Below, one piece after another: positions 1 to 36,287 of a stretch of DNA of 64,000 bases; positions within the stretch are counted from its first letter, which is position 1; each line of letters begins with the position of its first letter. The notes under the pieces are model-generated. The model made no database searches. It was not told the origin of the DNA and saw nothing but the letters and a program-made list of their open reading frames with translations. This DNA is from Eledone cirrhosa (Eukaryota), in assembly GCA_964016885.1 (NCBI GenBank), contig OZ024747.1, positions 74,338,001-74,402,000 on the forward strand, in the 5' to 3' direction. The position numbers and the translations under genes were made by a program.

Positions 1-2820
1 CACTACAACCGCTACTGTAACCACTACCACCACCACTGCCACTACAACCGCTACTGTAACCACTACCACCACCACTGCCACTACAACCACTATTGCTACC
101 ACTACAACCACCACTGCCACTACAACCACTACTGTAACCACTACCACCTCTACTGCCACTACAACCACTACTGTAACGACTACCACCACCACTGCCACTA
201 CAACCACTACTGTAACCACTACCACCACCACTGCCACTACAACCGCTACTGTAACCACTACAACCACCACTGCCACTACAACCACTACTGTAACCACTAC
301 AACCACCACTGCCACTACAACCGCTACTGTAACCACTACCACCACCACTGCCACTACAACCACTACTGTAACCACTACAACCACCACTGCCACTACAACC
401 ACTACTGTAACCACTACCACCACCACCGCCACTACAACCACTACTGTAACCACTACCACCACCACTGCCACTACAACCGCTACTGTAACCACTACCACCA
501 CCACTGCCACTACAACCGCTACTGTAACCACTACCACCACCACTGCCACTACAACCGCTACTGTAACCACTACCACCACCACTGCCACTACAACCACTAC
601 TGTAACCACTACAACCACCACTGCCACTACAACCACTACTGTAACCACTACCACCACCACCGCCACTACAACCACTACTGTAACCACTACCACCACCACT
701 GCCACTACAACCGCTACTGTAACCACTACCACCACCACTGCCACTACAACCACTACTGTAACCACTACCACCACCACTGCCACTACAACCGCTACTGTAA
801 CCACTACCACCACCACTGCCACTACAACCGCTACTGTAACCACTACCACCTCTACTGCCACTACAACCACTATTGCTACCACTACAACCACCACTGCCAC
901 TACAACCACTACTGTAACCACTACCACCACCACTGCCACTACAACCACTATTGCTACCACTACCACCACCACTGCCACTACAACCACTACTGTAACCACT
1001 ACAACCACCACTGCCACTACAACCGCTACTGTAACCACTACAACCACCACTGCCACTACAACCACTACTGTAACCATTACCACCACCACTGCCACTACAA
1101 CCACTACTGTAACCACTACCACCACCACTGCCACTACAACCACTATTGCTACCACTACAACCACCACTGCCACTACAACCACTACTGTAACCACTACCAC
1201 CACCACTGCCACTACAACCGCTACTGTAACCACTACCACCACCACTGCCACTACAACCGCTACTGTAACCACTACCACCACCACTGCCACTACAACCGCT
1301 ACTGTAACCACTACCACCACCACTGCCACTACAACCACTACTGTAACCACTACAACCACCACTGCCACTACAACCACTACTGTAACCACTACCACCACCA
1401 CCGCCACTACAACCACTACTGTAACCACTACCACCACCACTGCCACTACAACCGCTACTGTAACCACTACCACCACCACTGCCACTACAACCACTACTGT
1501 AACCACTACCACCACCACTGCCACTACAACCGCTACTGTAACCACTACCACCACCACTGCCACTACAACCGCTACTGTAACCACTACCACCTCTACTGCC
1601 ACTACAACCACTATTGCTACCACTACAACCACCACTGCCACTACAACCACTACTGTAACCACTACCACCACCACTGCCACTACAACCACTATTGCTACCA
1701 CTACCACCACCACTGCCACTACAACCACTACTGTAACCACTACAACCACCACTGCCACTACAACCGCTACTGTAACCACTACAACCACCACTGCCACTAC
1801 AACCACTACTGTAACCATTACCACCACCACTGCCACTACAACCACTACTGTAACCACTACCACCACCACTGCCACTACAACCACTATTGCTACCACTACA
1901 ACCACCACTGCCACTACAACCACTACTGTAACCACTACCACCACCACTGCCACTACAACCACTACTGTAACCATTACCACCACCACTGCCACTACAACCA
2001 CTACTGTAACCACTACCACCACCACTGCCAGTACAACCACTATTGCTACCACTACAACCACCACTGCCACTACAACCACTACTGTAACCACTACCACCAC
2101 CACTGCCACTACAACCACTATTGCTACCACTACAACCACCACTGCCACTACAACCACTACTGTAACCACTACAACCACCACTGCCACTACAACCGCTACT
2201 GTAACCACTACCACCACCACTGCCACTACAACCACTACTGTAACCATTACCACCACCACTGCCACTACAACCACTACTGTAACCACTACCACCACCACTG
2301 CCAGTACAACCACTATTGCTACCACTACCACCACCACTGCCACTACAACCACTACTGTAACCACTACCACCACCACTGCCACTACAACCACTATTGCTAC
2401 CACTACAACCACCACTGCCACTACAACCACTACTGTAACCACTACCACCACCACTGCCACTACAACCACTATTGCTACCACTACCACCACCACTGCCACT
2501 ACAACCACTACTGTAACCACTACAACCACCACTGCCACTACAACCGCTACTGTAACCACTACCACCATTACTGCCACTACAACCACTACTGTAACCACTA
2601 CCACCACCACTGCCACTACAACCACTACTGTAACCACTACCACCACCACTGCCACTACAACCGCTACTGTAACCACTACCACCACCACCACTGCCACTAC
2701 AACCACTACTGTAACCACTACCACCACCACTGCCACTACAACCACTACTGTAACCACTACCACCACCACTGCCACTACAACCACTACTGTAACCACTAAC
2801 ACCACCACTGCCACTACAAC
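1..2820. repeat. 39-bp minisatellite (CACTACAACCGCTACTGTAACCACTACCACCACCACTGC), ~72 copies, runs off the window start
   Basis: 39-bp period read directly; variant units recur at a 741-bp (19-unit) spacing. Confidence 0.95.
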
Positions 2821-5820
2821 CACTAACGCCACTACTGCTTCTAGAACCACTACTGCTACCACTACTACTAATACTGTTACCACTACCACTACCACTACCA
2901 CTACAACCACCACTTCTACTGCCACTATCACATCTCTACCTTATCATTGTATCTAATGTAACCACCACAACCACCACTACCACCACCACAACTACCACTA
3001 CCACCGTCGGTATCACCACCACTATCACCAGCACCACCACCACAACCACCGCAACCACCACTACCACTACCGCAACCACCACTATCATCAGCACCACCAC
3101 CACAACCACCACAACCACCACTACCACCACCACAACCACCACTACCACCACCGCAACCACCACAACCACCACTACCACCACCACAACCACCACTACCACC
3201 GTCGGTATCACCACCACTATCACCAGTACCACCACCACAACCACCACAACCACCACTATCACCAGTACCACCACCACAACCACCACTACCACCACCACAA
3301 CCACCACTACCACCACCGCAACCACCACTATCATCAGCACCACCACCACAACCACCACAACCACCACTACCACCACCACAACCACCACAACCACCACTAC
3401 CACCACCACAACCACCACTACCACCACCGCAACCACCACTATCACCACAACCACCACCACCACAACCACAACCACCACCACCATCACTGTTTCACTACAA
3501 TGGTATTTACCATCACTATACCTTCAGTATAACCATCTAGAAAATGTGCCGGTTCTCCGACGCCCCACCGTCACCATCACCATCACCACCATTACCATAA
3601 TCATAACCACTATTACAACCATCATCATACCATCAATACCATCAACACAAACACCATCAATGCAGCGATCACCACCACCGCCCCTACCAGCATCAACAGC
3701 AACAGCAATAGCAGCAGCAATATACCACCAGCAACAGCAACAGCAACAGAAAGATACTACAGCAACAGCAACAGCAACAGCAGCAGCAATATACCATCAG
3801 CAACAGCAACAGCAGCAGCAATATACCATCAGCAACAGCAGCAGCAGCAGCAGCAACAGCAACAGCAATATACCATTATCAACAACAGCAGCAGTAATAT
3901 ACTATCAGCAACAACAGCAGCAATACACTATCAGCAACAGCAGCAACAGCAATATACCATTATCAACAACAACAGCAGTAATATACCATTAGCACAACAG
4001 CAGCAGTAATATACTATCAGCAACAACAGCATTAATATACCATTAGCAACAACAGCAGCAGCAATATACCTCAGCAACAGCAGCAGCAACAGCAATATAT
4101 CAGCAGCAACAACAGCAGCATTAATATACCATTAGCAACAACAGCAGCAGTAATATACCATCAGCAACAGCAGCAACAGCAGCAGCAATATTACATCAGC
4201 AACAACAACAGCAGTAATATACCATCATCAACAACAACAGCAGTAATATATCATCATCAACAACAACAGCAGTAATATATCATCACCAGCAACAACAGCA
4301 GTAATATATCATCATCAACAACAACAGCAGTAATATACCATCACAGCAACAACAACAGCAGCAATATACCAGCAACAGCAACAGCAGCAGTAATATACCA
4401 TCATCAACAACAACAGCAGTAATATACCATCACAGCAAAAACAACAGCAGCAATATACCAGCAACAGCAACAGCAGCAGTAATATACCATCATCAACAAC
4501 AACAGCAGTAATATATCATCATCAACAACAACAGCAGTAATATACCATCATCAACAACAGCAGTAATATATCATCACAGCAACAACAACAGCAGCAATAT
4601 ACCAGCAACAGCAACAGCAGCAGCAGTGCAATTAACATTACCGTTCTCGCAACCACCTGACACAGCTATTACCACTACCACCACCAACAACAACAACACC
4701 AACACCCACACCAATACCACAACCACTGCCACCACCACCACCATCAACGACACCAACACCATCACAACCACTACCACCACAACACAACCACAACAACACA
4801 ACCACTACCACCACCATCAACGACACCAACACCAACACAACCACTGCTACCACTACTACCCCCACAACAACACCAGACCCACTACCACCACAACACAACC
4901 AAAACCACAACACCACCACAACACCACCACCACAACGCCACCACAACACCACCACTACACACACCACCAGAACACCACCACAACACAACCACCACACCAC
5001 GACGACCACTACCACCACACCACCACAAGCACAACACCACCACAACACAACCACAACCCCACGACGACCACTACCACCACACCACGACGACCACTACCAC
5101 CACACCACCACAAGCATAACACCACCACAACACAACCACAACACCACCACAACCACAACACGTACTGTTGTTACCGCTGTCTTTGAAAGTACACTTCTTT
5201 CCTCGTTCATTCTTCTAAGTGTTCTCCATATTTCTGTAGCACCACTCCTACCACCATCACCACCACCACAGAAGCCGTCACTATTATCAACACCACCACA
5301 ACCATCACCATCATCTCCACCATCACCACCACAGAAGCAGTCACTATCACCATCATCATCATCACCACCACCACAGAAGCCGTCACTATCACCAACATCA
5401 CCACCATCACCACCATCATCATCACTAGCGCTATTACCACCGCCATCAGCTTCATCACCATCATAACAATCATAATTATTATTACAACCACAACAATAGC
5501 CACAACCACCACCACCACATCACCTCCACCACCACTACAACCACCACACCACCATCACCACATCACCACCACCACCACTACCACCATACCACCACCACCA
5601 TCAATCACCCCCACAACAACCACCACCACCACCACCACACCACCACAACAACCACCACAACCACCACCACAACAACAACCACCACTATCACCACCACCAC
5701 CACACCACCTCCATCACCACTACCACCACTACCACCACCACCACCACAACCACCACCACTACCACCACCACCACCACAACCACCACCACTATCACCACCA
5801 CCACCACAACAACCACTACC
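2821..5820. repeat. Degenerate (CAC/ACC)n, (CAG/CAA)n low-complexity tracts
   Basis: Trinucleotide-derived simple repeats; poly-V/T/Q ORFs are by-products. Confidence 0.9.
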
Positions 5821-6119
5821 TTCTGTCAGAACCACCACTCCAAATATATATTACCTGTAAACAAGGTAGTCACTCCACTTACTAGAAATAGCAACCACAT
5901 CTTTTCCAAATCACACACTTCTGTTCTAGAAAACGCCTTGGATCAAGTGGTCCTGCGTTCAGTACAAGTTGAAAAAAGACAGGATGGTCACGGCTGGAAT
6001 GTCTACAATTATAGGTCTGTCTGTTTAGTGAGGGCGACCCTGAGGCTAAACAACACCAAAAACCACCACCACTACTGTCACTACACAAATAGACAATATT
6101 TCACTACCACTACTACTAC

Positions 6120-6860
6120 TACCACTGTCACAAACAGTAGTGTGATTACTACTACCACCACCACCACTACCACAGTCACAAATGTAGTGTAACTACTAGC
6201 AGCACCACTACTACTGTCACAAATGTTGTGTGACTACCACTACTACCACCACCACCACCACCACCACCACCACCACTACCACCACCACTGTCACAACTCT
6301 AGTGTGACTACTACCATCACTACCACCACAACTACCACTCCCACTACCACTACCACTGTCACAACTGTAGTGTGACTACCACTACTGCTTCCACCACTAC
6401 CACTCCCACTGTCACCACCACTGTCACAACTGTGGTGTGACTACCACCACCACTACTGTCACAACTCTAGTGTGACTACCACTACCACCACCATTGTCAC
6501 AACTCTAGTGTGACTACTACCACCACTATCACCACAACTACCACTCCTACTACCACTACCACTGTCACAACCCTAGTGTGACTACCACTACTGCTTCCAC
6601 CACTACCACTCCCGCTACCACCACCACTGTCACAACTCTAGTGTGACTACCACCACCACCACCACTGTCACAACTCTAGTGTGACTACTACCACCACTAT
6701 CACCACAACTACCACTCCTACTACAACTACCACTGTCACAACTGTAGTGTGACTACCACTACTGCTTCCACCACTACCACTCCCACTACCACCACTACGG
6801 TCACAACTGTAGTGTGACTACCACTACCACCACCACTGTCACAACTCTACTGTGACCACC
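6120..6860. repeat. ~14 copies of a small hairpin motif GTCACA-N7-TGTGAC separated by (CAC/TAC)n spacers
   Basis: Repeated gtcacaactctagtgtgac / gtcacaactgtagtgtgac. Confidence 0.85.
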
Positions 6861-7494
6861 ACTACTGCTACCACCTCTATAGTAAGATATTACCTGTAAC
6901 TCTCACCTCCACCGCTACCATCATCGATTGTACTAAAAATACTACCACCGCCACTGCCACCATTATTTCACATAGCACCACTACTACTACTGCCACTACC
7001 TAACAATACCAGAATATTATATTACCTGCAACTACAATCATAACCACAACCAGCACCTCTGCCACCACTGTCACCACCACCACCACTACTACCACCACCG
7101 CCACCACCACCACCATCATCACCACCGCTACCACTACCATCACCACCACCAGCACTACCATCACCACCACCGCCACTAACACCAACACCAACAACACCAC
7201 TAACACCAACACCCCAACACCAACACCAACACCACCATCACCACCGCTACCACCACCTCCACCACCTCCACCACCACCACCACCACCACCACCACCACCA
7301 TCATCACGTCATTTCACTTTCTCATGTCTCGGCGGTTTCTATTTTTGTAATACTCAGACTTCCCCCTCTCTCACACCGCCATTCACTCTCTATGCTCACT
7401 ATTCTATATGTATATATATATATATATATATATGTATATGTATGTGTATATATATATATAATATATATATGTATATATATATTATATATATATG

Positions 7495-7554
<60 letters not shown>

Positions 7555-7576
7555 AAATGTTTCTTCTCTCTTCATA

Positions 7577-7609
<33 letters not shown>

Positions 7610-7737
7610 CATATATATACATACATATTTTCGTGACTACACACATTTATTTGCACAAACATAAATGCATAGATATTTTCGTGCGCATATACAAGAATGT
7701 ATTGTATATATATGTGTGGGGGGGGGGGGAGTGTTTG

Positions 7738-7772
<35 letters not shown>

Positions 7773-7894
7773 CTGTGTGTGTGTGTGTGTCCGTCTATAT
7801 TAGTATGTAATTACATAAACGTATGAATATTTCTGTGTGCACGCTTGGTTACATGTCTGCACATACATACATACACACATACAGACATACATAT

Positions 7895-8211
7895 ATGATG
7901 GCTGCCCTCTCGTTATCGAGTATGGCCATTGCTCGATAAACCATTATTAATAATTATCAATTAATTCTACCGTGCATTGCCTGTACCTGAAGATATTTTT
8001 TAAAGTGAGGAAAGACTGTGCACTGAGCCAGTCCCACTCTCTGAGCGACAGTAGCTATGACCAGAAAAGAAGAAAAGATCAACATCATCGGTAACTACTG
8101 AGTCGCAGGTTTTATATCGGAGTTATCCCAGTTTCCTGAGTTGCCTTCCCCTAGAAGAATGCCCTCACAAAGGCTAGGGGTCCTTCACTCCCAGTGGTTT
8201 AACCGCGCGGT
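7895..8211 (-). mobile_element. Non-autonomous RTE-derived short element (divergent subfamily), 5'-truncated
   Basis: 3' end GCAATGGCCATACTCGATAACGAGAGGGCAGCCATCAT nearly identical to the LINE 3' end at 42432-42473; body homologous to ~42005-42205; flanked by (TACA)n. Confidence 0.75.
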
Positions 8212-8478
8212 ACATACACACATACATACATAGACACATACATACATACATACATACATACATACATACATACATACATAGACACATACATACATACATA
8301 CATACATACATACATACATACATACATACATACATACATACATTCATACATACATACATAGACACATACATACATACATACATACATACATACATACATA
8401 CATACATACATACATGATTGCATGCATGCATATGTACATGCTTGGGTGTGCATGTATATATATATATATATATATATA

Positions 8479-8553
8479 GAAGTTGTTACACAACAGTTAG
8501 TTCACCATACCGAGAACAATTGTTTCACCACCGCGGGCGGATCTTCAGCATAC
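8479..8553 (-). ncRNA. Truncated minimal hammerhead-like motif (PLE type), same family as 22194-22312
   Basis: Minus strand CTGAAGA-tccgcccgcggtggt-GAAA-caattg-TT-ctcggtatgg; palindromic helix III; 5' helix I strand missing. Confidence 0.55.
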
Positions 8554-8725
8554 TTATATATCTACTCACACACATACACACATACACACTCACACATACA
8601 CACATACACACTCACACATACACACATACACACACACGCACATACACACATACATCCTCATATACCTACTCACACACATACACAGACACATATATATAAC
8701 TATTATATGTATATATATCCAGGGA

Positions 8726-8772
<47 letters not shown>

Positions 8773-9059
8773 TATATGAGTATGTATGTGTGTATGTGCG
8801 TGTGTGTGTATGTGTGAGTGTGTATGTGTGTATGTGTGTGAGTAGATATATAAGTATGTATGTGTGTATGTGCGTGTGTGTGTGTATGTGTGAGTGTGTA
8901 TGTGTGTATGTGTGTGAGTATGTATGTGTGAGTGTGTGTGTGAGTAGGTACATGAGTATGTATGTGTCCATGCGTAGTCACCAGTGAAACTGTAGTCCCA
9001 CTTTCTTCTCCAACTGACCAGACCAGCTGCTAATGTAGCGAATGGTCTACCCCTACCAT

Positions 9060-10542
9060 CTGGTGGTGGTGGTGGTGGTGGTGGTGGTGGTGGTGGTGGT
9101 GGTGGTGGTGGTGGTGGCGGCGGTGGTGGTGGTGGTGGTGGTGGTGGTGGTGGTGGTGGCGGTGGTGGTGGTGGCGGCGGTGGTGGTGGTGGTGGTGGTG
9201 GTGGTGGTGGTGGTAGTGGTGGTGGTGGTGGTGGTGGTGGTGGTGGTGGTAGTGGTGGTGGTGGTGGTGGTGGTGGTGGTGGTGGCGGTGGTGGTGGTGG
9301 TGGTGGTGGTGGTGGTGGTGGTGGTGGCGGTGGTGGTGGTGGTGGCGGTGGTGGTGGTGGTGGTGGTGGTGGTGGTGGTGGTGGTGGTGGTGGTGGTGGT
9401 GGTGGTGGTGGTGGTGGCGGCGGTGGTGGTGGTGGTGGTGGTGGTGGTGTTGGTGGTGGTGGTAGTGGTGGTGGTGGTGGTGGTGGTGGTGGTAGTGGTG
9501 GTGGTGGTGGTGGTGGTGGTGGTGGTGGTGGTGGCGGTGGTGGTGGTGGTGGTGGTGGTGGTGTTGGTGGTGGTGGTGGTGGTGGTGGTGGTGTTGATGG
9601 TGTTGGTGGTGGTGGTGGTGGTGGTGGTGGTGGTGGTGGCGGCGGTGGTGGTGGTGGTGGTGGTGGTGGTGGTGGCGGCGGTGGTGGTGGTGGTGGTGGT
9701 GGTGGTGGTGGTGGTGGTGGTGGCGGCGGTGGTGGTGGTGGTGGTGGTGGTGGTGGTGGTGGTGGTGGTGGCGGCGGCGGTGGTGGTGGTGGTGGTGGTG
9801 GTGGTGGTGGTGGTGGTAGTGGTGGTGGTGGTGGTGGTGGTGGTGGTGGTAGTGGTGGTGGTGGTGGTGGTGGTGGTGGTGGTGGTGGTGGTGGTGGTGG
9901 CGGTGGTGGTGGTGGTGGTGGTGGTGGTGGTGGTGGTGGTGGTGGTGGTGGTGGTGGTGGTGGTGGTGGTGGTGGTGGTGTTGATGGTGTTGGTGGTGTT
10001 GGTGGTGGTGGTGGTGGTGGTAGTGTTGATGGTGTTGATGGTGTTGGTGGTGTTGATGGTGGTGGTGGTGGTGGTGGTGGTGGTAGTGTTGATGGTGTTG
10101 ATGGTGTTGGTGGTGTTGGTGGTGGTGGTGGTGGTAGTGTTGATGGTGTTGATGGTGGTGGTGGTGTTGGTGGTGGTGGTGGTGGTGGTGGTGGTGGTGG
10201 TGGTGGTGGTGGTGGTGGTAGTGTTGATGGTGTTGATGGTGGTGGTGGTGTTGGTGGTGGTGGTGGTGGTGGTAGTGTTGATGGTGTTGATGGTGGTGGT
10301 GGTGGTGGTGGTGGTGGTGGTGGTGTTGATGGTGGTGGTGGTGGTGGTGGTGGTGGTAGTGTTGATGGTGTTGATGGTGGTGGTGGTGTTGGTGGTGGTG
10401 GTGGTGGTGGTAGTGTTGATGGTGTTGATGGTGGTGGTGGTGGTGGTAGTGTTGATGGTGTTGATGGTGTTGGTGGTGTTAATGGTGGTGGTGGTGGTGG
10501 TGGTGGTGGTAGTGTTGATGGTGTTGATGGTGTTGGTGGTGT

Positions 10543-10573
<31 letters not shown>

Positions 10574-10795
10574 GGTGTTGGTGGTGGTGTTGGTGATGGT
10601 GGTGATGATGATGGTGGTGGTGGTGTTGGTGGTGGTGGTGGTGTTGGTGGTGCTGGTGGTGGTGGTGGTGGTGGTGGTGATGGTGGTGATGGCGATGGCG
10701 ATGGCGGCGGCGGCAGCGGTGGTGGAGGTGATGGTGGTAGTGGTGGTGGTGTTGGTGGTGGGGAGTGGGGGGTGGGGTTAGTGGTGGTGGTGGTG
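9060..10795. repeat. ~1.7-kb (GGT)n microsatellite with GGC/GTT/GAT variants
   Basis: Direct reading; poly-V ORF is an artefact. Confidence 0.95.
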
Positions 10796-11802
10796 GTTCT
10801 ACTGCTGTTACTGCTAATGGTGCTATTACATCTACGCTACTTTTGTTGCAACATCTGCTACCACTGCCACTACCACCACTACTCATTCTGCTGGTGAAAC
10901 ATCTACTGCCCCTACCACTACTACTACAGCTGCTGGTGCAACGATGCTACCACCACTGCCACCACTGCTAGGGAATCTACCTGTGCAACCACCACTTCTA
11001 CTGCTGTTGGTGCTACCACTACCACTACTTCTACTACTGCTGGTGCATCCTCTACTACTACCGCTACTACAGCTGCTGGTGTAACGATGCTACCACTGCC
11101 ACTACCACTACTACTACTACTACTACTACAGCTGCTGGTGTAACGATGCTACCACTGCCACTACCACTACTACTACTACTACTATTACTACTACTACTAC
11201 TACTACTACTGCTACTGCTACTGCTGCTGCTGCTGTTGGTGCTGGTGCAACGTATACTACATCCGCAACTGCTTCTGGTGCATGATATGCTACCACCACT
11301 ATTAGTACTTCAACCTGTGCAACCTCCACGTCTACTGCTGGTGTATTATATACTACCACCACTACTGAGGATGTCACCTCTGCTACCCCACTCTACTACT
11401 ACCGCTACTGCTACTCCAGCGTATACAAACAGCACTTACTGGAGTAAACCTCTACTGCTACCACCGCTACTGCTGCAGTATATACCACTAATACTAGCAC
11501 TGCAACAACTAGTGCAACCTTTACTACTACCACCACCTCTAATACTGCTACAAAATATACCACTACTACTACTACCACCACCTCTAATACTAGTGGAACA
11601 TATACCACTACTACTACTACCACCTCTGATACTACTGCAGCATATACCACTACTGCTACCACTACTACAATTAGCGCAACTTCTGCTACAAACGTAGTTA
11701 TGCCGTGGTGTCATATACTACAACCAATACTACTGCAGGTGCATTCACTACAAATGCTAAGGCTTAGAATTTGACAACTACATCCGCTACTGGTGGTGCA
11801 AT

Positions 11803-11850
<48 letters not shown>

Positions 11851-11918
11851 GTGCTGCAGCTGTTGCTGTTTGTGAACCACCACTACTACTGCTGCTACTG
11901 CTACTACTACTGCTGCTA

Positions 11919-11949
<31 letters not shown>

Positions 11950-12329
11950 ATCATACGCTACAGCCACTACTACATCTGGTCCAGCCTACACCAGCCCTAA
12001 TACTACTGCTGCTGGTGCACCACTACTACATCTGGTGCAGCCTACTGCAGCACTACTACTACTGCTGGTGCACCATCACTACATCTGATGCAGTCAACAC
12101 CAGTCATACTACTTCTGCTGGTGGTGCACCATCACTACATCTGGTGCAGCCTACACCAGCCCTACTACTACTGCTGGTGGTGCACCATCACTACATCTGG
12201 TGCAGTCTACACCAACACTACTACTACTGCTGGTGGTGCACCATCACTACATCTGGGCAGTCTACTGTAGCAGTAGTATTGCTACTATTGCTGGTGCAAC
12301 ATATGTAGACACCACCACTGCTACAACTA

Positions 12330-13693
12330 CAGCTCCCAATCTACCCACCACTAATACAACTACAGCTACCAATCTACCCACCACTAATACAACTTCAGCT
12401 ACCAATCTACCCACCATTGCTACAACTACAGCTACCAATCTACCCACCACTGCTACAACTACAGCTACCAATCTACCCACAACTGCTACAACTACAGCTA
12501 CCAATCTACACACCACTGCTACAACTACAGCTACCAATCTACACACCACTGCTACAACTACAGCTACCAATCTACACACCACTGCTACAACTACAGCTAC
12601 CAATCTACCCACCACTGCTACAACTACAGCTACCAATCTACCCACCACTGCTACAACTACAGCTACCAATCTACCCACCACTGCTACAACTACAGCTACC
12701 AATCTACACACCACTGCTACAACTACAGCTACCAATCTACACACCACTGCTACAACTACAGCTACCAATCTACACACCACTGCTACAGCTACAGCTACCA
12801 ATCTACCCACAACTGCTACAACTACAGCTACCAATCTACCCACCACTGCTACAACTACAGCTACCAATCTACACACCACTGCTACAACTACAGCTACCAA
12901 TCTACACACCACTGCTACAACTACAGCTACCAATCTACACACCACTGCTACAACTACAGCTACCAATCTACACACCACTGCTACAGCTACAGCTACCAAT
13001 CTACCCACAACTGCTACAACTACAGCTACCAATCTACCCACCACTGCTACAACTACAGCTACCAATCTACACACCACTGCTACAACTACAGCTACCAATC
13101 TACCCACCACTGCTACAACTACAGCTACCAATCTACACACCACTGCTACAGCTACAGCTACCAATCTACACACCACTGCTACAGCTACAGCTACCAATCT
13201 ACCCACAACTGCTACAACTACAGCTACCAATCTACCCACCACTGCTACAACTACAGCTACCAATCTACCCACAACTGCTACAACTACAGCTACCAATCTA
13301 CACACCACTGCTACAGCTACAGCTACCAATCTACCCACAACTGCTACAACTACAGCTACCAATCTACCCACCACTGCTACAACTACAGCTACCAATCTAC
13401 ACACCACTGCTACAACTACAGCTACCAATCTACACACCACTGCTACAGCTACAGCTACCAATCTACCCACAACTGCTACAACTACAGCTACCAATCTACC
13501 CACAACTGCTACAACTACAGCTACCAATCTACACACCACTGCTACAACTACAGCTACCAATCTACCCACCACTGCTACAACTACAGCTACCAATCTACAC
13601 CCCACTGCTACAACTACAGTTACCAATCTACCCACCACTGCTACAACTACAGCTACCAATCTACACACCACTGCTACAACTACAGCTACCAAT
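12330..13693. repeat. 33-bp minisatellite (GCTACCAATCTACMCACCACTGCTACAACTACA), ~41 copies
   Basis: 33-bp period; open in two + frames and one - frame as expected for such a unit. Confidence 0.95.
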
Positions 13694-13844
13694 CAACAGC
13701 CTACAGACTAGCTTCCAACCTCCATCCTCCGACCTTCAACCTCCAACCTACGCCCCCACCAGCTACAGCCTCCAACTTCCAGCCACCAGCCTAAAGCACC
13801 TAACCTCACGTAGCTTCCAATAACAGCAGCACTACTACTATTAT

Positions 13845-13922
<78 letters not shown>

Positions 13923-14102
13923 AGTAACTGCTGCTGCTACTACTTTTCGTGTTATAGTGTTAGTGGTAAGGGTGGTGTAGTCGCTCTTGTGGTGATGGTA
14001 GTGGTGGTAATGGTTTTATTGGTTTTGAGTAGGGGGAACGGTGGTACAGACATAATTAGTGCTGGCTTAATAATTAAACAATATCACTGAATACATACAT
14101 AC

Positions 14103-27285: not shown

Positions 27286-27508
27286 CAATATATAACAGTT
27301 TTACAAATAAGCTTTGACGTACCCTATTAAAATGCAACCATTGTTTTTGGAAGTCATATGGTTGGACTCAGGAAAAGATTTTAGACTGACCTGGACCATC
27401 GCGCGGAGACCGAATGCAATATATAATGCAAATCGTATAGCATACGATATACATCACATACAACATCCACGCTAGGATTCTGTAAATCCGAGATATATAT
27501 ATATATAT

Positions 27509-28208
27509 ATACATTTAAAGTATATGATAAACACGAAATGTGTTTACATTGCAACAGACAAAGTTAGCTATTAATGAAATAAACTAATAAAAGTGAATAC
27601 AATTTGTCTGTCTCGATACAAGTCAATAAAGACAAGATTATATTGGCAACGGCCATGATTCCTGGACATATTTAAATTTCAAAATTCAAACCTGTTCTGT
27701 AGACGAATTTGAACCTCGAAACCCAAATAAGTTTCGCAACGGTGGAATGTGAATTGAAAAATAAAGAGAATCGAAATGGAATAGAAATAAAAGAGTGAAA
27801 TGTCCAAATCTTCTGTGCTTATCAACAGGAATCCAGTAAGATTAGTCTATCTCACATCAACAATTTTGCAGGTCTGACTACACGTGGGTAGGCAGGCCAA
27901 AACTAGCTATCCCACATTCACGGTGCTAGAAATAACAGCCGCTTATGCAGGATTAAGGATCAGCTCTTACAATAAAGGAGCTATACATTATATTATATTT
28001 TGAGAATAAACTCTCAGTCGTTTACAATAATTAAGCTCCAGGAAGGGGCTCTTCCGAGCAGTTAATACATTTAAAGTATATGATAAACACGAAATGTGTT
28101 TACATTGCAACAGACAAAGTTAGCTATTAATGAGATAAACTAATAAAAGTGAATACAATTTGTCTGTCTCGATACAAGTCAATAAAGACAAGATTATATT
28201 GGCAACGG

Positions 28209-28211
<3 letters not shown>
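27509..28211 (-). mobile_element. Non-coding 556-bp unit with ~147-bp terminal redundancy, hammerhead-bearing (retrozyme/PLE-like)
   Basis: Direct repeats 27509-27655 and 28065-28211 (1 mismatch seen); (TA)n on both sides; hammerhead fold at 27657-27833. Confidence 0.75.
27657..27833 (-). ncRNA. Type I hammerhead fold with extended helix III; core mutated (TTGATAA)
   Basis: gattcctg-TTGATAA-gca...tgc-GAAAc...gTC-caggaatc; perfect 8-bp helix I; long helix III hairpin. Confidence 0.65.
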
Positions 28212-28307
<96 letters not shown>

Positions 28308-28452: not shown

Positions 28453-28862
28453 CTATTGTAGAATATAATGCCCGACGGCAAAGCTTCAACCGAATATAGA
28501 CAGATATATAGGTTGATAGCTATAGATAGTTGCTATTCTATAAATGACAATTCTAAACTTGATATGTCTAATCAACCCTCTGTTAGAGATAGGTAGGGAG
28601 GAAGATATAAAATTACTGTCACCAGAAAAATAACATGTAGTTGCCACGTGATCAAGTGTATTATTATTATATCAACATACTGTTGACTTCACAAAGCTTT
28701 GGAAAAAATTTAGCCTTGAATATATAGTTACCACACTGCAGATAACTATAAGTTGTGTTGATGAATACAAGTAAATAGATACATAAATCGGATAAAGTTC
28801 GCTGGAGAGGGACGATGTGTAGAAAGTATATAAATAGCTTCTTTATGTCAACTGTATTAAAT

Positions 28863-29430
28863 ATAATTGTTTCTAATTTTAGTACAAGGCCAACAATTTA
28901 AAAGGGAAAGGAAATTTGATTAAATCGACCCCACTGGTACTGCATTTTTTCAACCCCGAAAGTATGAAAGGTGAGATTTGAACTCAGAACGCAAAATGAC
29001 GCAAAGTAGTGTTCAATGCTCTACCTATACTGCCAATCCACCGCCCTTAAATAATGATTTTTTATTTAGGCACAAAGCAAGCAATATTTGACAGGGACTT
29101 TATTTTATCGACCCCGTAAGGAGGAAAGGAAAATCTAAGACGGCGGGATTTGAACTCAGAACGTGAAGAGACGGAACTCTATGCCACAAAGGATGTTATC
29201 CGATACTCTAAAGATTCTACTACCATTCCACCACCTCCACATTTAAATAATTGTTTCTACTATTGGCACAAGGCCAGCAATTACCCAGTACATTACTGGT
29301 TCTTTATTTTATCGACCCGGGATGAAAGGCAAAGTTGACCTCGGCGGGATTCGAACTCAGAATGGAAAGGGTCGTAACATTATGCGTCAAAGCATGACGT
29401 CCGACCCTCTACCGATACTGGCAATCCACA
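28863..29430 (-). mobile_element. Three head-to-tail SINE family A copies
   Basis: Three B-box (GAGTTCRAAT on minus strand) units with the shared tail. Confidence 0.8.
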
Positions 29431-29627
29431 TTTAAATAATACATGAACTAAAGGACCAAATACGAGAATGTACAACAATTTTTAGAAAATGAGTTTATTT
29501 TAAAAATAAACACCTACATTTGGTCACACACACACAGACAGACACACACACACACACACACACCCACATACTGTCACACAGATATGTGGGTGTATGAGTG
29601 CTTCTCTGTGTTTACTTTCAAATGATT

Positions 29628-29810
29628 AAATAATTGTTTCTACTTTTGGCTCAAGGCCACCAATCACCCAGTACATTACTGGTACTTTATTTTATCGACC
29701 CCGTAGGGATGAAAGGCAAAGTTAACCTCGGCGAGATTTGAACTCAGACCGTAAAGGGACGTAACTATGCTGGAAAGCATGGCGTCCGACTCTCTACCAA
29801 TACTGCCAAT
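29628..29810 (-). mobile_element. SINE family A copy
   Basis: A box TGGCAGTATTGG, B box GAGTTCAAATC, central and tail motifs. Confidence 0.85.
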
Positions 29811-34679: not shown

Positions 34680-35863
34680 GTAGGTAGATAGGTAGATAGA
34701 TATTGTGAGCTTCGGTATAAAGAGAGGATAGGAAGATAAATATATATGGAGGGGTGGTTGGTGATAAGCTATACCGAATGTAGGTATGGACTTGTAGTTG
34801 TATGGGAGATATAAGGGGTGGGTGGTGATTGACGGATGAAGGAATAGTTAGTGATAAGACATGGCAAGTATAGACATAGAGGGATGTTTATAAATGGAGG
34901 ACAGAGAGGGGAATGAGACGATGATTAGAGAACGACAGGATAAACTGAGGAGGGCATGGGTTAAAGTAAGGTATAGAGAAACAACAGCTGGAGACATATC
35001 AATGGGAATGACGGAGTATGTTATAATGAAAAATGTCATCGGGAAATGTATGGACATCATGATAATGGGATCGGTGAAGTTATTGTAGCTAATTGATGGA
35101 TAGTAGAGATAAGTGAGAGTGTAGAGAGGGGGTGAAGGGGTGAGGAGGTGAGTGGGTGGTTGAGTCAGTGAGGGAGTGTGTGAGTGAGTGAGGGACTGAA
35201 TGGGTGTGTGAGGGGGAGGGGAGTGGGTGTGCGAATGGGTGTGCGAGTGAGTGAGTGTGTGACAGAGTGTGTGAGTGAGTGAGAGAGTGAGAGTGTGAGT
35301 GTGTGTGTAAATAAATGAGTGAGTGGGTGAGTGAGTGAGAGAGTGAGTGTGTGAGTGTGTGAGTGAGTGTGTTAGTAAATGAGTGAGTGAGAGAGTAAGC
35401 AAGTGAGTGAGGGGATAACACTATGTAAGACAGAGTGAGATACAAAGAAAGAGAAAGAGAGAGAGTTACCTGGACAACACACGATATGGTTAAGAGTGTC
35501 TTGCTATGGCCAGTATGTGTGTGTGTGTCTCGAAGTCTGTGTGTGTGTGTGACAGTTTCTATATATATATATGTGTGTGTGTGTGTGTCTGTGTTGTGTA
35601 CGTGTGTATGTGATTGTATATGTGTGTGTGGCTGTGTATGTATGTGTGTGTGTAAGGTGGGGGGTGAAGAAGGAATCAGCACGCGAGAAAGAATGAAAAC
35701 ACAAAATAGATAAGAAGATTATAGAGATTAGAGAGAGCAGGGTAAGATACGGGTAGCAACTTTTACCCAGAGAAAGAGTGGATGGTATATATATATATAT
35801 GCGTGTGTGTGTGTGTGTGTGTGTGTGTATAAAGTGTTTATATATTTATTTAATACCTTCTAT

Positions 35864-36287
35864 CATTACAAATATAATTATTCCTACTTTGGGCACAAGG
35901 CCAGCAATTATAACAGTGTATTACTGGTACTTTATTTTATCGACCCCCGTAAGGATAAAAGGCAAAGTTAACCTCGGCGAGATTTGAACTCAGACCATAA
36001 AGGGCCGTAACTCTATGCTGCAAAGCATGGCGTTCGACCCTCTACCGATACTGCCAATCCACCACCCTTCTACCATTACAAATATAATTGATTCTACTTT
36101 AGGCACAAGGCCAGCAATTATCCAGTGCATTACTGGTACTTTATTTTATCGACCCCGTAAGGATGAAAGGCAAAGTCAACCTCGGCGGGATTTGAACTCA
36201 GATCGTAAAGGGACGTAACTATGCTGGAAAGCATGGCGTCCGACCCTCTACCGATACTGCCAATCCACCGCCCATTACAAATATAAT
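35864..36287 (-). mobile_element. Two tandem full-length SINE family A copies with a 15-bp motif repeated at all three boundaries
   Basis: A/B boxes in both; CATTACAAATATAAT at 35864, 36074, 36273. Confidence 0.9.

Follow-up and report, generated by a model that had tools for sequence, protein, structure and literature searches.

Introduction

Metazoan non-LTR retrozymes are described as non-coding tandem units of low G+C content that carry one type I hammerhead, lack an LTR, PBS, and PPT, and are dispersed as monomers to trimers (PMC7229834; 10.64898/2026.07.22.740005). They have been proposed to be non-autonomous PLE sequences mobilized by PLEs, and the case for this mover has so far come from co-occurrence and repeat homology (PMC7229834; 10.64898/2026.07.22.740005). 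In the accessible parts of these two sources, we found no retrozyme tied to a given intact element and an RNA signal. Both cleavage and circular RNA have been demonstrated for retrozymes of coral, mussel, and axolotl (PMC7229834).

PLE insertions are recognizable by partial tandems, by an arm that is inverted and truncated, and by a tail on one side only (PMC8557442). A PLE protein studied in vitro, that of Anolis Poseidon, uses two internal RT starts that yield the tail, cuts AT-rich DNA, and extends both strands (PMC11167929). A circular template has already been proposed for PLEs (PMC4209133).

Here, we analyze an insertion at 27509..28211 of a 64,000-nucleotide stretch of DNA, the whole of which we call the window. 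Genome-wide comparison places the locus in a dispersed, long-lived non-coding retrozyme family, as one of its copies. Its class is a known one, the non-LTR retrozymes, here predicted to have a named partner, a Hydra-clade PLE. The family shares the sequence traits by which retrozymes are described above, and its 556-nt unit falls in the 51- to 972-bp range of a survey of vertebrate retrozymes (10.64898/2026.07.22.740005). Unlike metazoan retrozymes as described, with their canonical core and helix III of 1 to 2 bp, it has a U3-A8 core, a helix III of about 27 bp, and a long insert in helix II, and it forms head-to-head arms with fixed starts. Its link to a partner consists of two short hairpins, whereas in known retrozymes it consists of pLTR homology (10.64898/2026.07.22.740005). 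In contrast to the retrozymes of coral, mussel, and axolotl, the family is known from sequence alone.

With Hydra-clade PLEs, the retrozyme shares (TA)n targets, partial tandems, an inverted 5'-truncated arm, and a one-sided tail, but unlike them it encodes no protein (PMC8557442). With Anolis Poseidon, it shares two internal RT starts that lie 3' of the ribozyme at a spacing equal to the genomic tail, as well as, in the mechanism proposed below, AT-rich cutting, extension of both strands, and a protein dimer; the Anolis element differs in that its starts lie in an AC-rich stem-loop within the ORF and its tail is 30 to 40 nt (PMC11167929). What is new, as far as the sequences go, is an unrelated passenger tied to an intact partner by hairpins alone, together with a natural series of core variants; we found no description of the family or of its start-site hairpins in the openly accessible literature.

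Results

A one-armed insertion of 1.26 units in a (TA)n target

The insertion (27509..28211; 703 nt, 1.26 units) is one-armed and primed at site A, one of two fixed start sites, and its RNA sense is the minus strand. One 556-nt monomer spans 27509..28064 (minus strand), with its left end, 27509, at start site A. As the preliminary description had reported, the ends are direct repeats: 27509-27655 (unit positions 1 to 147) and 28065-28211, both on the plus strand, are 147 bp each at a period of 556 and differ by a single mismatch (27578/28134). The second repeat ends on the right at the far end of the cDNA, which varies within the family. The reported (TA)n was likewise found on both sides, with the left part of the target at 27493..27508 ((AT)n from about 27493) and the right part at 28212..28262, followed by (AG)n; neither part has a strand. 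The unit is without an ORF, again as described, the longest stop-free run being 55 codons in six frames of the doubled 556-nt unit.

Between start site B (about 27982-27990) and site A lies an 83-nt segment (27982..28064, minus strand) that is found at a single end only in two-armed relatives, where it forms a "tail". The redundancy ends before the ribozyme, which is absent from the first repeat, and the window copy therefore holds one hammerhead. With a single ribozyme, it would be unable to free a monomer by two cuts of its own.

A predicted hammerhead ribozyme with a U3-A8 core

The minus strand can be folded as a type I hammerhead, as proposed earlier, and each motif quoted for it was found in its place. 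The whole motif, the sole one in the window copy, occupies 27657..27833, and all of its parts are on the minus strand. Helix I has 8 bp, its 5' strand at 27826..27833 pairing with 27657-27664. The core reads TTGATAA at 27819..27825 (U3-U4-G5-A6-U7-A8-A9, with the covariant pair U3-A8 and with A9 at 27819). Helix II (27736..27818) has three basal pairs (27816-27818/27736-27738) and a length-variable, pyrimidine-rich 83-nt insert, and the core residues G12-A13-A14-A15.1 lie at 27732..27735 (GAAAC, 27731-27735). The long helix III hairpin (27666..27732) has about 27 pairs, including G-U, with arms at 27706-27722/27676-27692. The GUC triplet at 27665..27667 places the predicted cut between 27665 and 27664.

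Relative to shuffles, the fold of 27650-27840 has a z score of -2.2. With the core kept open, the fold lies 4.4 kcal/mol above the minimum-energy fold in the window copy and equals it in one older subfamily copy; across four copies the catalytic fold is 0 to 5 kcal/mol above the minimum, and in three of the four it is not the minimum-energy fold. Rfam did not detect the hammerhead at thresholds up to E 5 and returned only (TA)n artefacts. Among 19 representatives, 94% of 722 cells are paired, compared with 13 to 54% for slid-partner controls. Changes on both sides of a pair occur at three of the eight positions of helix I, where they separate this family from a sister family, as well as at the first pair of helix II and at three pairs of helix III. 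Pairs with double changes are not above shuffles (7 versus 6.3); the double changes come mostly from one split between the two families and thus represent a handful of events, and intermediates with G-U or partial helix changes exist between the families. In the seven core columns that lie outside the selection of our search patterns (GAAA and GTC), there are no propagated variants, compared with 60% of 376 other columns. By these comparisons, the hammerhead core and helices are under selection.

The preliminary description expected a CTGATGA consensus and would have taken a consensus that keeps TTGATAA and does not cleave as evidence against its reading. The first expectation failed: an 18-mer with the canonical core has 0 matches in the genome, versus 452 for the exact 21-nt pattern with TTGATAA (reversed control, 0). 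A C3 core occurs in none of the first 100 listed matches to a pattern permitting C3, and U3-G8 occurs in 6 of them. Nor is TTGATAA a defect. U3-A8 is a natural covariant of the C3-G8 pair and active in vitro (PMC3088659), and it also occurs in Schistosoma PLE ribozymes (PMC4209133). The core is thus a known covariant and not a product of decay, and it is kept together with compensatory helix changes in the sister family. The Schistosoma ribozymes are minimal motifs without helix III (PMC4209133), whereas the long helix III seen here is as in fungal and protist PLE ribozymes.

A dispersed family and a diverged sister family

In a 3.0-Gb assembly of 1796 contigs, the unit search returned 1833 candidates with matches on many contigs, so the unit is not single-copy; 40 candidates were scored, and full-length copies are 97 to 100% identical. 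A degenerate 17-nt core pattern gave 988 matches (control, 0). Copies picked by the core form subfamilies whose identity spans 100% to about 65% and whose monomers measure 523 to 558 nt. A non-ribozyme motif with 912 matches led to the sister family, which has a 564-nt unit at 62% identity and 201 core matches. Among 25 loci obtained with this 19-mer, 17 carry TTGATAA and 1 carries TTGATAT; the other 7 belong to another repeat, an unrelated one of LTR type, and were set aside. A tree of 121 natural stretches is ladder-like, and intermediates link the two retrozyme families. Before counting, we removed 13 doubly retrieved loci, the second member of the local duplicates in each of L061 and L062, and a distant final piece of L069; duplicate rows were also removed from the sister-family and core-column sets.

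The 19-mer at 27924-27942, which in the RNA lies about 20 nt 3' of hairpin B (see below), is unchanged between both retrozyme families; a promoter or a protein site at this position would be a guess. This segment, the most conserved one outside the ribozyme, has an exact 19- to 20-nt match in another non-coding element, which measures about 1.95 kb and whose direct terminal repeats, roughly 330 bp long, look LTR-type by eye (L173:404-2356 and L179:417-2338, also L165, L167, L176, L177, and L192). We also saw near-identical insertions with common flanks at two places (L233/L234, L098/L099, L061, and L062), which point to segmental or tandem duplication or to assembly duplicates.

Core variants that have spread

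A9 (27819), which we take to be a conserved hammerhead core position, is replaced by U (TTGATAT) in 26 of the 57 core copies in 36 insertions chosen by whole-unit match, and the A9U core has 145 further matches genome-wide. On the tree, A9U needs four changes and is expanded in clades of 8 and 17 rows; the A9U copies (L253, L255, L266, and L020-type) are all on side branches, and the trunk retains A9. A search of the literature for the effect of A9U on cleavage rate gave nothing usable. A9U lineages still form multi-unit arrays with private shared variants (L071 and L072), which suggests that A9U is tolerated or that cleavage is unnecessary, and its spread in at least two lineages suggests that fast cleavage may be dispensable. 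In the Anolis PLE, cleavage is unnecessary in vitro: ribozyme mutants insert normally, and the main template is uncut RNA (PMC11167929). Of the predicted frog retrozymes, 8/9 were without cleavage (10.64898/2026.07.22.740005).

A U3-G8 side branch (TTGATGA) with A-U at the base of helix II was seen at L229 and at G000:C1:102165658, 106731635, 119136270, and 136014815. Relative to the U3-A8 cores in the available descriptions (PMC3088659; PMC4209133), the family thus adds the recurrent A9U and this side branch. It amounts to a natural series of hammerhead cores (U3-A8, U3-G8, and A9U) with known reproductive success, and the series is a test of whether spread requires cleavage.

Two fixed starts and variable far ends

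We examined 107 distinct insertions, 36 found by whole-unit match, which favors long arms, and 71 by core pattern. Primed ends fall at two sites 83 nt apart, site A at unit position 1 and site B at position 474. Forty insertions are one-armed (23 start at site A, 15 at site B, and 2 are damaged), and 67 are two-armed and head to head, of which 58 are A/B, 4 were scored A/A, 5 have a damaged end, and none is B/B. On inspection, the left ends of the four insertions scored A/A are B-type. Young two-armed insertions are A/B in 35 of 36 cases, and 87 of 91 primed ends of young copies adjoin (TA)n. The sister family gives a similar picture (n = 13), with 10 A/B, 1 B/B, and 2 without a clear end type; its B/B insertion, L195, is the sole two-armed one seen with B at both ends. 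Arm joints overlap by 1 to 4 nt in 20 of 36 cases.

Variation is therefore confined to the far ends, the primed ends lying at two fixed sites, contrary to the circularly permuted start points that had been predicted. LTR or TRIM anatomy is absent, as that description had supposed: redundancy runs from none to more than two units with no fixed far end, repeat length is different in every copy, and arrays reach 3.5 units. Two consecutive complete ribozymes are present in 17/107 insertions, compared with the one of the window copy.

Two candidate rules for these ends and arms were rejected. The preliminary description placed the predicted cut about 10 nt from the repeat boundary, which is true for the window copy but is chance in the family at large, where 4 of 174 arm ends lie within 10 nt of the cut site and 6.6 are expected; far ends are not tied to the cut site. 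Copying back between arms was rejected as a general source of the inversion, since the arms of L086, L089, L095, L111, and L113 are not nested. In such insertions neither arm contains the other, indicating that the template, and not the opposite arm, was the source of each.

The features of PLE-type insertion are all present, namely two fixed starts, a one-sided tail, an inverted truncated arm, and a microsatellite target. We conclude that this is almost certainly a non-coding element moved by a PLE.

More-than-unit copies of one monomer

We compared haplotypes at 19 common polymorphic sites in 55 young insertions. Tandem units on the same strand are concordant in 420 of 427 comparisons, against 261 expected for random family members, and opposite arms are concordant in 522 of 529, against 319 expected. 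Variants private among the 55 sampled insertions point the same way, 10 being common to tandem units in 7 insertions and 12 to both arms in 9. Where the units of an insertion do differ, the variant is in nearly every case private (121 rare unshared versus 28 rare shared), as expected of later mutation, and this argues against strong homogenization. One haplotype per insertion is expected if one monomer is read more than once.

The preliminary description had reverse transcription running more than once round a circular monomer. These counts bear out the part that concerns more-than-unit copies of one monomer template; the circle goes beyond them as an inference. The stops of cDNA at the cut site (156 or 239 nt) that a linear cut monomer predicts were not seen. 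Among sequencing runs, none of RNA was listed as containing the unit. The joint of 28064 to 27509, together with the unit, is present in two sequencing contig runs, but because this joint also exists as DNA, it says nothing about circles. A circle would be the simplest template, with linear jumps or uncut multimers as alternatives, and we consider the template probably circular.

The alternative that survives best keeps the same element and the same Hydra-clade partner but has as its template an uncut linear read-through of tandems, or a linear monomer with end-to-end jumps; the hammerhead would be slow or a passenger, and no circle would be needed. The propagation of A9U lineages is in its favor, and the 17 insertions with two tandem ribozymes could be linear sources, yet copying of this kind only shortens arrays, and in the core-pattern sample 45 of 114 arms are longer than one unit and 6 are longer than two. 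For the Anolis PLE in vitro, the template is mainly uncut RNA (PMC11167929), and the partner PLE itself forms more-than-unit arms with only a minimal ribozyme; against this stand the selection on the ribozyme core and helices and the private variants common to 2 to 4 units in 7 insertions, where unit-specific differences are nearly all private and not inherited. Of 187 pieces, 184 span the cut site without an indel, a rate similar to that of other quiet windows that gives no sign of template jumps. We regard a linear template as unlikely and a circle as the better reading.

Start-site hairpins shared with an intact Hydra-clade PLE

Just 3' of each start site in the RNA lies a GCTC..GAGCT hairpin. 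Hairpin A (28034..28059, minus strand), 5 nt 3' of site A, has a GCTC stem, an inner hairpin, a 2-nt bulge, and GAGCT, and hairpin B (27962..27981, minus strand), just 3' of site B, is short. The window copy, the old subfamilies viewed, and the sister family all carry the pair in the same order, each hairpin 5 to 10 nt 3' of its start site. Stems are intact in 135 of 153 site-A contexts and 88 of 116 site-B contexts, and at least two hairpin matches arose by chance in 3 of 5000 resampled units.

Starting from a GIY-YIG remnant next to a retrozyme copy, we reached an abundant PLE family (71,361 candidates). Copies of this family have two fixed ends in (TA)n, with a GCTC..GAGCT hairpin just 3' of each, the first long with a 2-nt bulge and the second short. 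Hairpin A has the build of the PLE end 1 hairpin, and hairpin B that of the PLE end 2 hairpin. A 20-mer over the PLE site-2 hairpin has 77 matches; of the 30 viewed, 29 are PLE leaders and 1 is an old retrozyme subfamily, in which the 20-mer is identical. In one place (L064:2205-2331), a retrozyme insertion lies in the (TA)n that ends an arm of a Hydra-clade PLE, back to back with it.

A young subfamily of this PLE (L343-L362, e.g., L357:1533-5731) is probably still active, as judged from 24 intact 811-aa ORFs in 20 loci fetched, with a mean identity of 99.4%; another example of the intact ORF lies at G000:C2:381823139-381825574. It has a 4199-bp period with ends 164 nt apart, and 14 of the 14 two-armed copies that show both ends have one end of each kind. 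Read by eye, the 811-aa protein has DKT, a CxCx5C linker, and CxxC and CxH around a C-terminal GIY-YIG, and it follows the published Hydra alignment motif by motif (PMC8557442). It has RWR where the Hydra clade has RWK, and its period of 4.2 kb compares with "generally <3 kb", a tendency (PMC8557442). Pfam and PDB returned no family for the protein. The published alignment includes a family from an octopus, and the accessible Hydra-clade description does not mention start-site hairpins (PMC8557442). The PLE ribozyme, located in older subfamilies close to the 3' end, is minimal, with a C3-G8 core and a palindromic helix III. Neither a match of the whole PLE period to the retrozyme unit at E < 0.001 nor any homology of the unit to PLE 3' regions was found; when the young PLE repeat region is compared locally with the unit, the best match is a 12-mer at the start site.

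The control for the hairpins was one other PLE family (12,507 candidates), which also targets (TA)n and has two fixed ends about 40 nt apart. The GCTC..GAGCT hairpin is absent from this family at 24 of 24 loci, the sequence past the second end being visible in one copy. At L364-L387, this second family is young, and its GIY-YIG is C-terminal.

Hairpins common to the retrozyme and an intact PLE likely name the copying enzyme. The link to the partner rests on short motifs, and we consider it very likely that this Hydra-clade PLE lineage moves the retrozyme. Alternatively, another PLE, of the Hydra clade or not, could be the mover, the hairpins being a clade-wide signal or a coincidence. The genome does hold several PLE families, but the control family, which shares the (TA)n target and the paired fixed ends, is without the hairpins. 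The hairpin loops differ between young retrozyme and young PLE, whereas the order, build, and offset of the hairpins are equal, the 20-nt identity ties an old retrozyme subfamily to older subfamilies of the Hydra-clade PLE, the best young-PLE match falls at the start site, and the young intact PLE ORFs match the youth of the retrozyme copies. A different PLE is therefore a quite improbable mover. Least probable is that the units are solo pLTRs or internally deleted copies of an autonomous PLE with this ribozyme, not an independent RNA parasite. Frog retrozymes are related to PLE pLTRs (10.64898/2026.07.22.740005) and the insertion anatomy is PLE-like (PMC8557442), but across 107 insertions of family 1 and 24 loci of the sister family the unit adjoins itself or (TA)n and never an ORF. 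The Hydra-clade PLE carries a different, minimal C3-G8 ribozyme and has no homology to the unit, and the ladder of subfamilies shows the family evolving in monomer form.

Discussion

We consider it likely, as a whole, that the retrozyme is copied from a one-unit RNA, probably a circle, by the enzyme of the Hydra-clade PLE. Tandem copies with two ribozymes would be transcribed, and the predicted hammerhead would cut out a monomer, which would then close to a circle. A protein dimer would bind hairpins A and B of one RNA, the PLE enzyme would likely cut (TA)n, and each cut DNA end would prime one cDNA, from sites A and B. Rolling synthesis would go more than one turn round the one-unit RNA. Two cDNAs joined by microhomology of 1 to 4 nt would give a two-armed copy, and one cDNA joined to the far (TA)n end would give a one-armed copy. 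The copy in the window is of this second kind and would be an A-primed, dead-end daughter of 1.26 turns with a single ribozyme.

Set against this model, the preliminary description was sound in its observed features, its multiple copies, its exclusion of LTR or TRIM anatomy, and its more-than-unit copying of one monomer, and it erred on permuted starts, the CTGATGA consensus, and the weight given to the nearby cut site. It overlooked the head-to-head arms with their one-sided 83-bp tail, the hairpins shared with a PLE, the recurrence of A9U, and the consequence of a single ribozyme.

We propose more tentatively, leaning slightly against it ourselves, that a circular RNA parasite hijacks the Hydra-clade PLE RT purely by mimicry of the start hairpins, that a dimer on one circle primes both (TA)n ends and rolls, and that a weak core has been selected against reopening of the circle. 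If so, dimer priming on one circle would account for the PLE tail and inverted arms, and the weakened core (U3-A8, with repeated A9U) beside a very stable helix III would stop a ribozyme active as a monomer from opening the circle again. On this view the hairpin pair would be portable, and any RNA that carried this signal would become a template for the Hydra-clade enzyme.

The pairing of retrozyme and PLE suggests how the PLE tail and inverted arms may arise. It combines many copies of an intact 811-aa ORF with two hairpins of 17 to 35 nt in a passenger without other homology. With the intact ORF and the hairpin signal both in hand, a direct in vitro test is possible with the published PLE assay.

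Other repeats in the window

Window positions 28860-29810 and 35856-36273 hold several diverged interspersed repeats of about 200 bp with a tRNA-like box, SINE-like by eye. Positions 1-14000 hold long ACC/ACT-rich arrays with periods of 39, 33, 29, and 3 nt and a strong strand skew.
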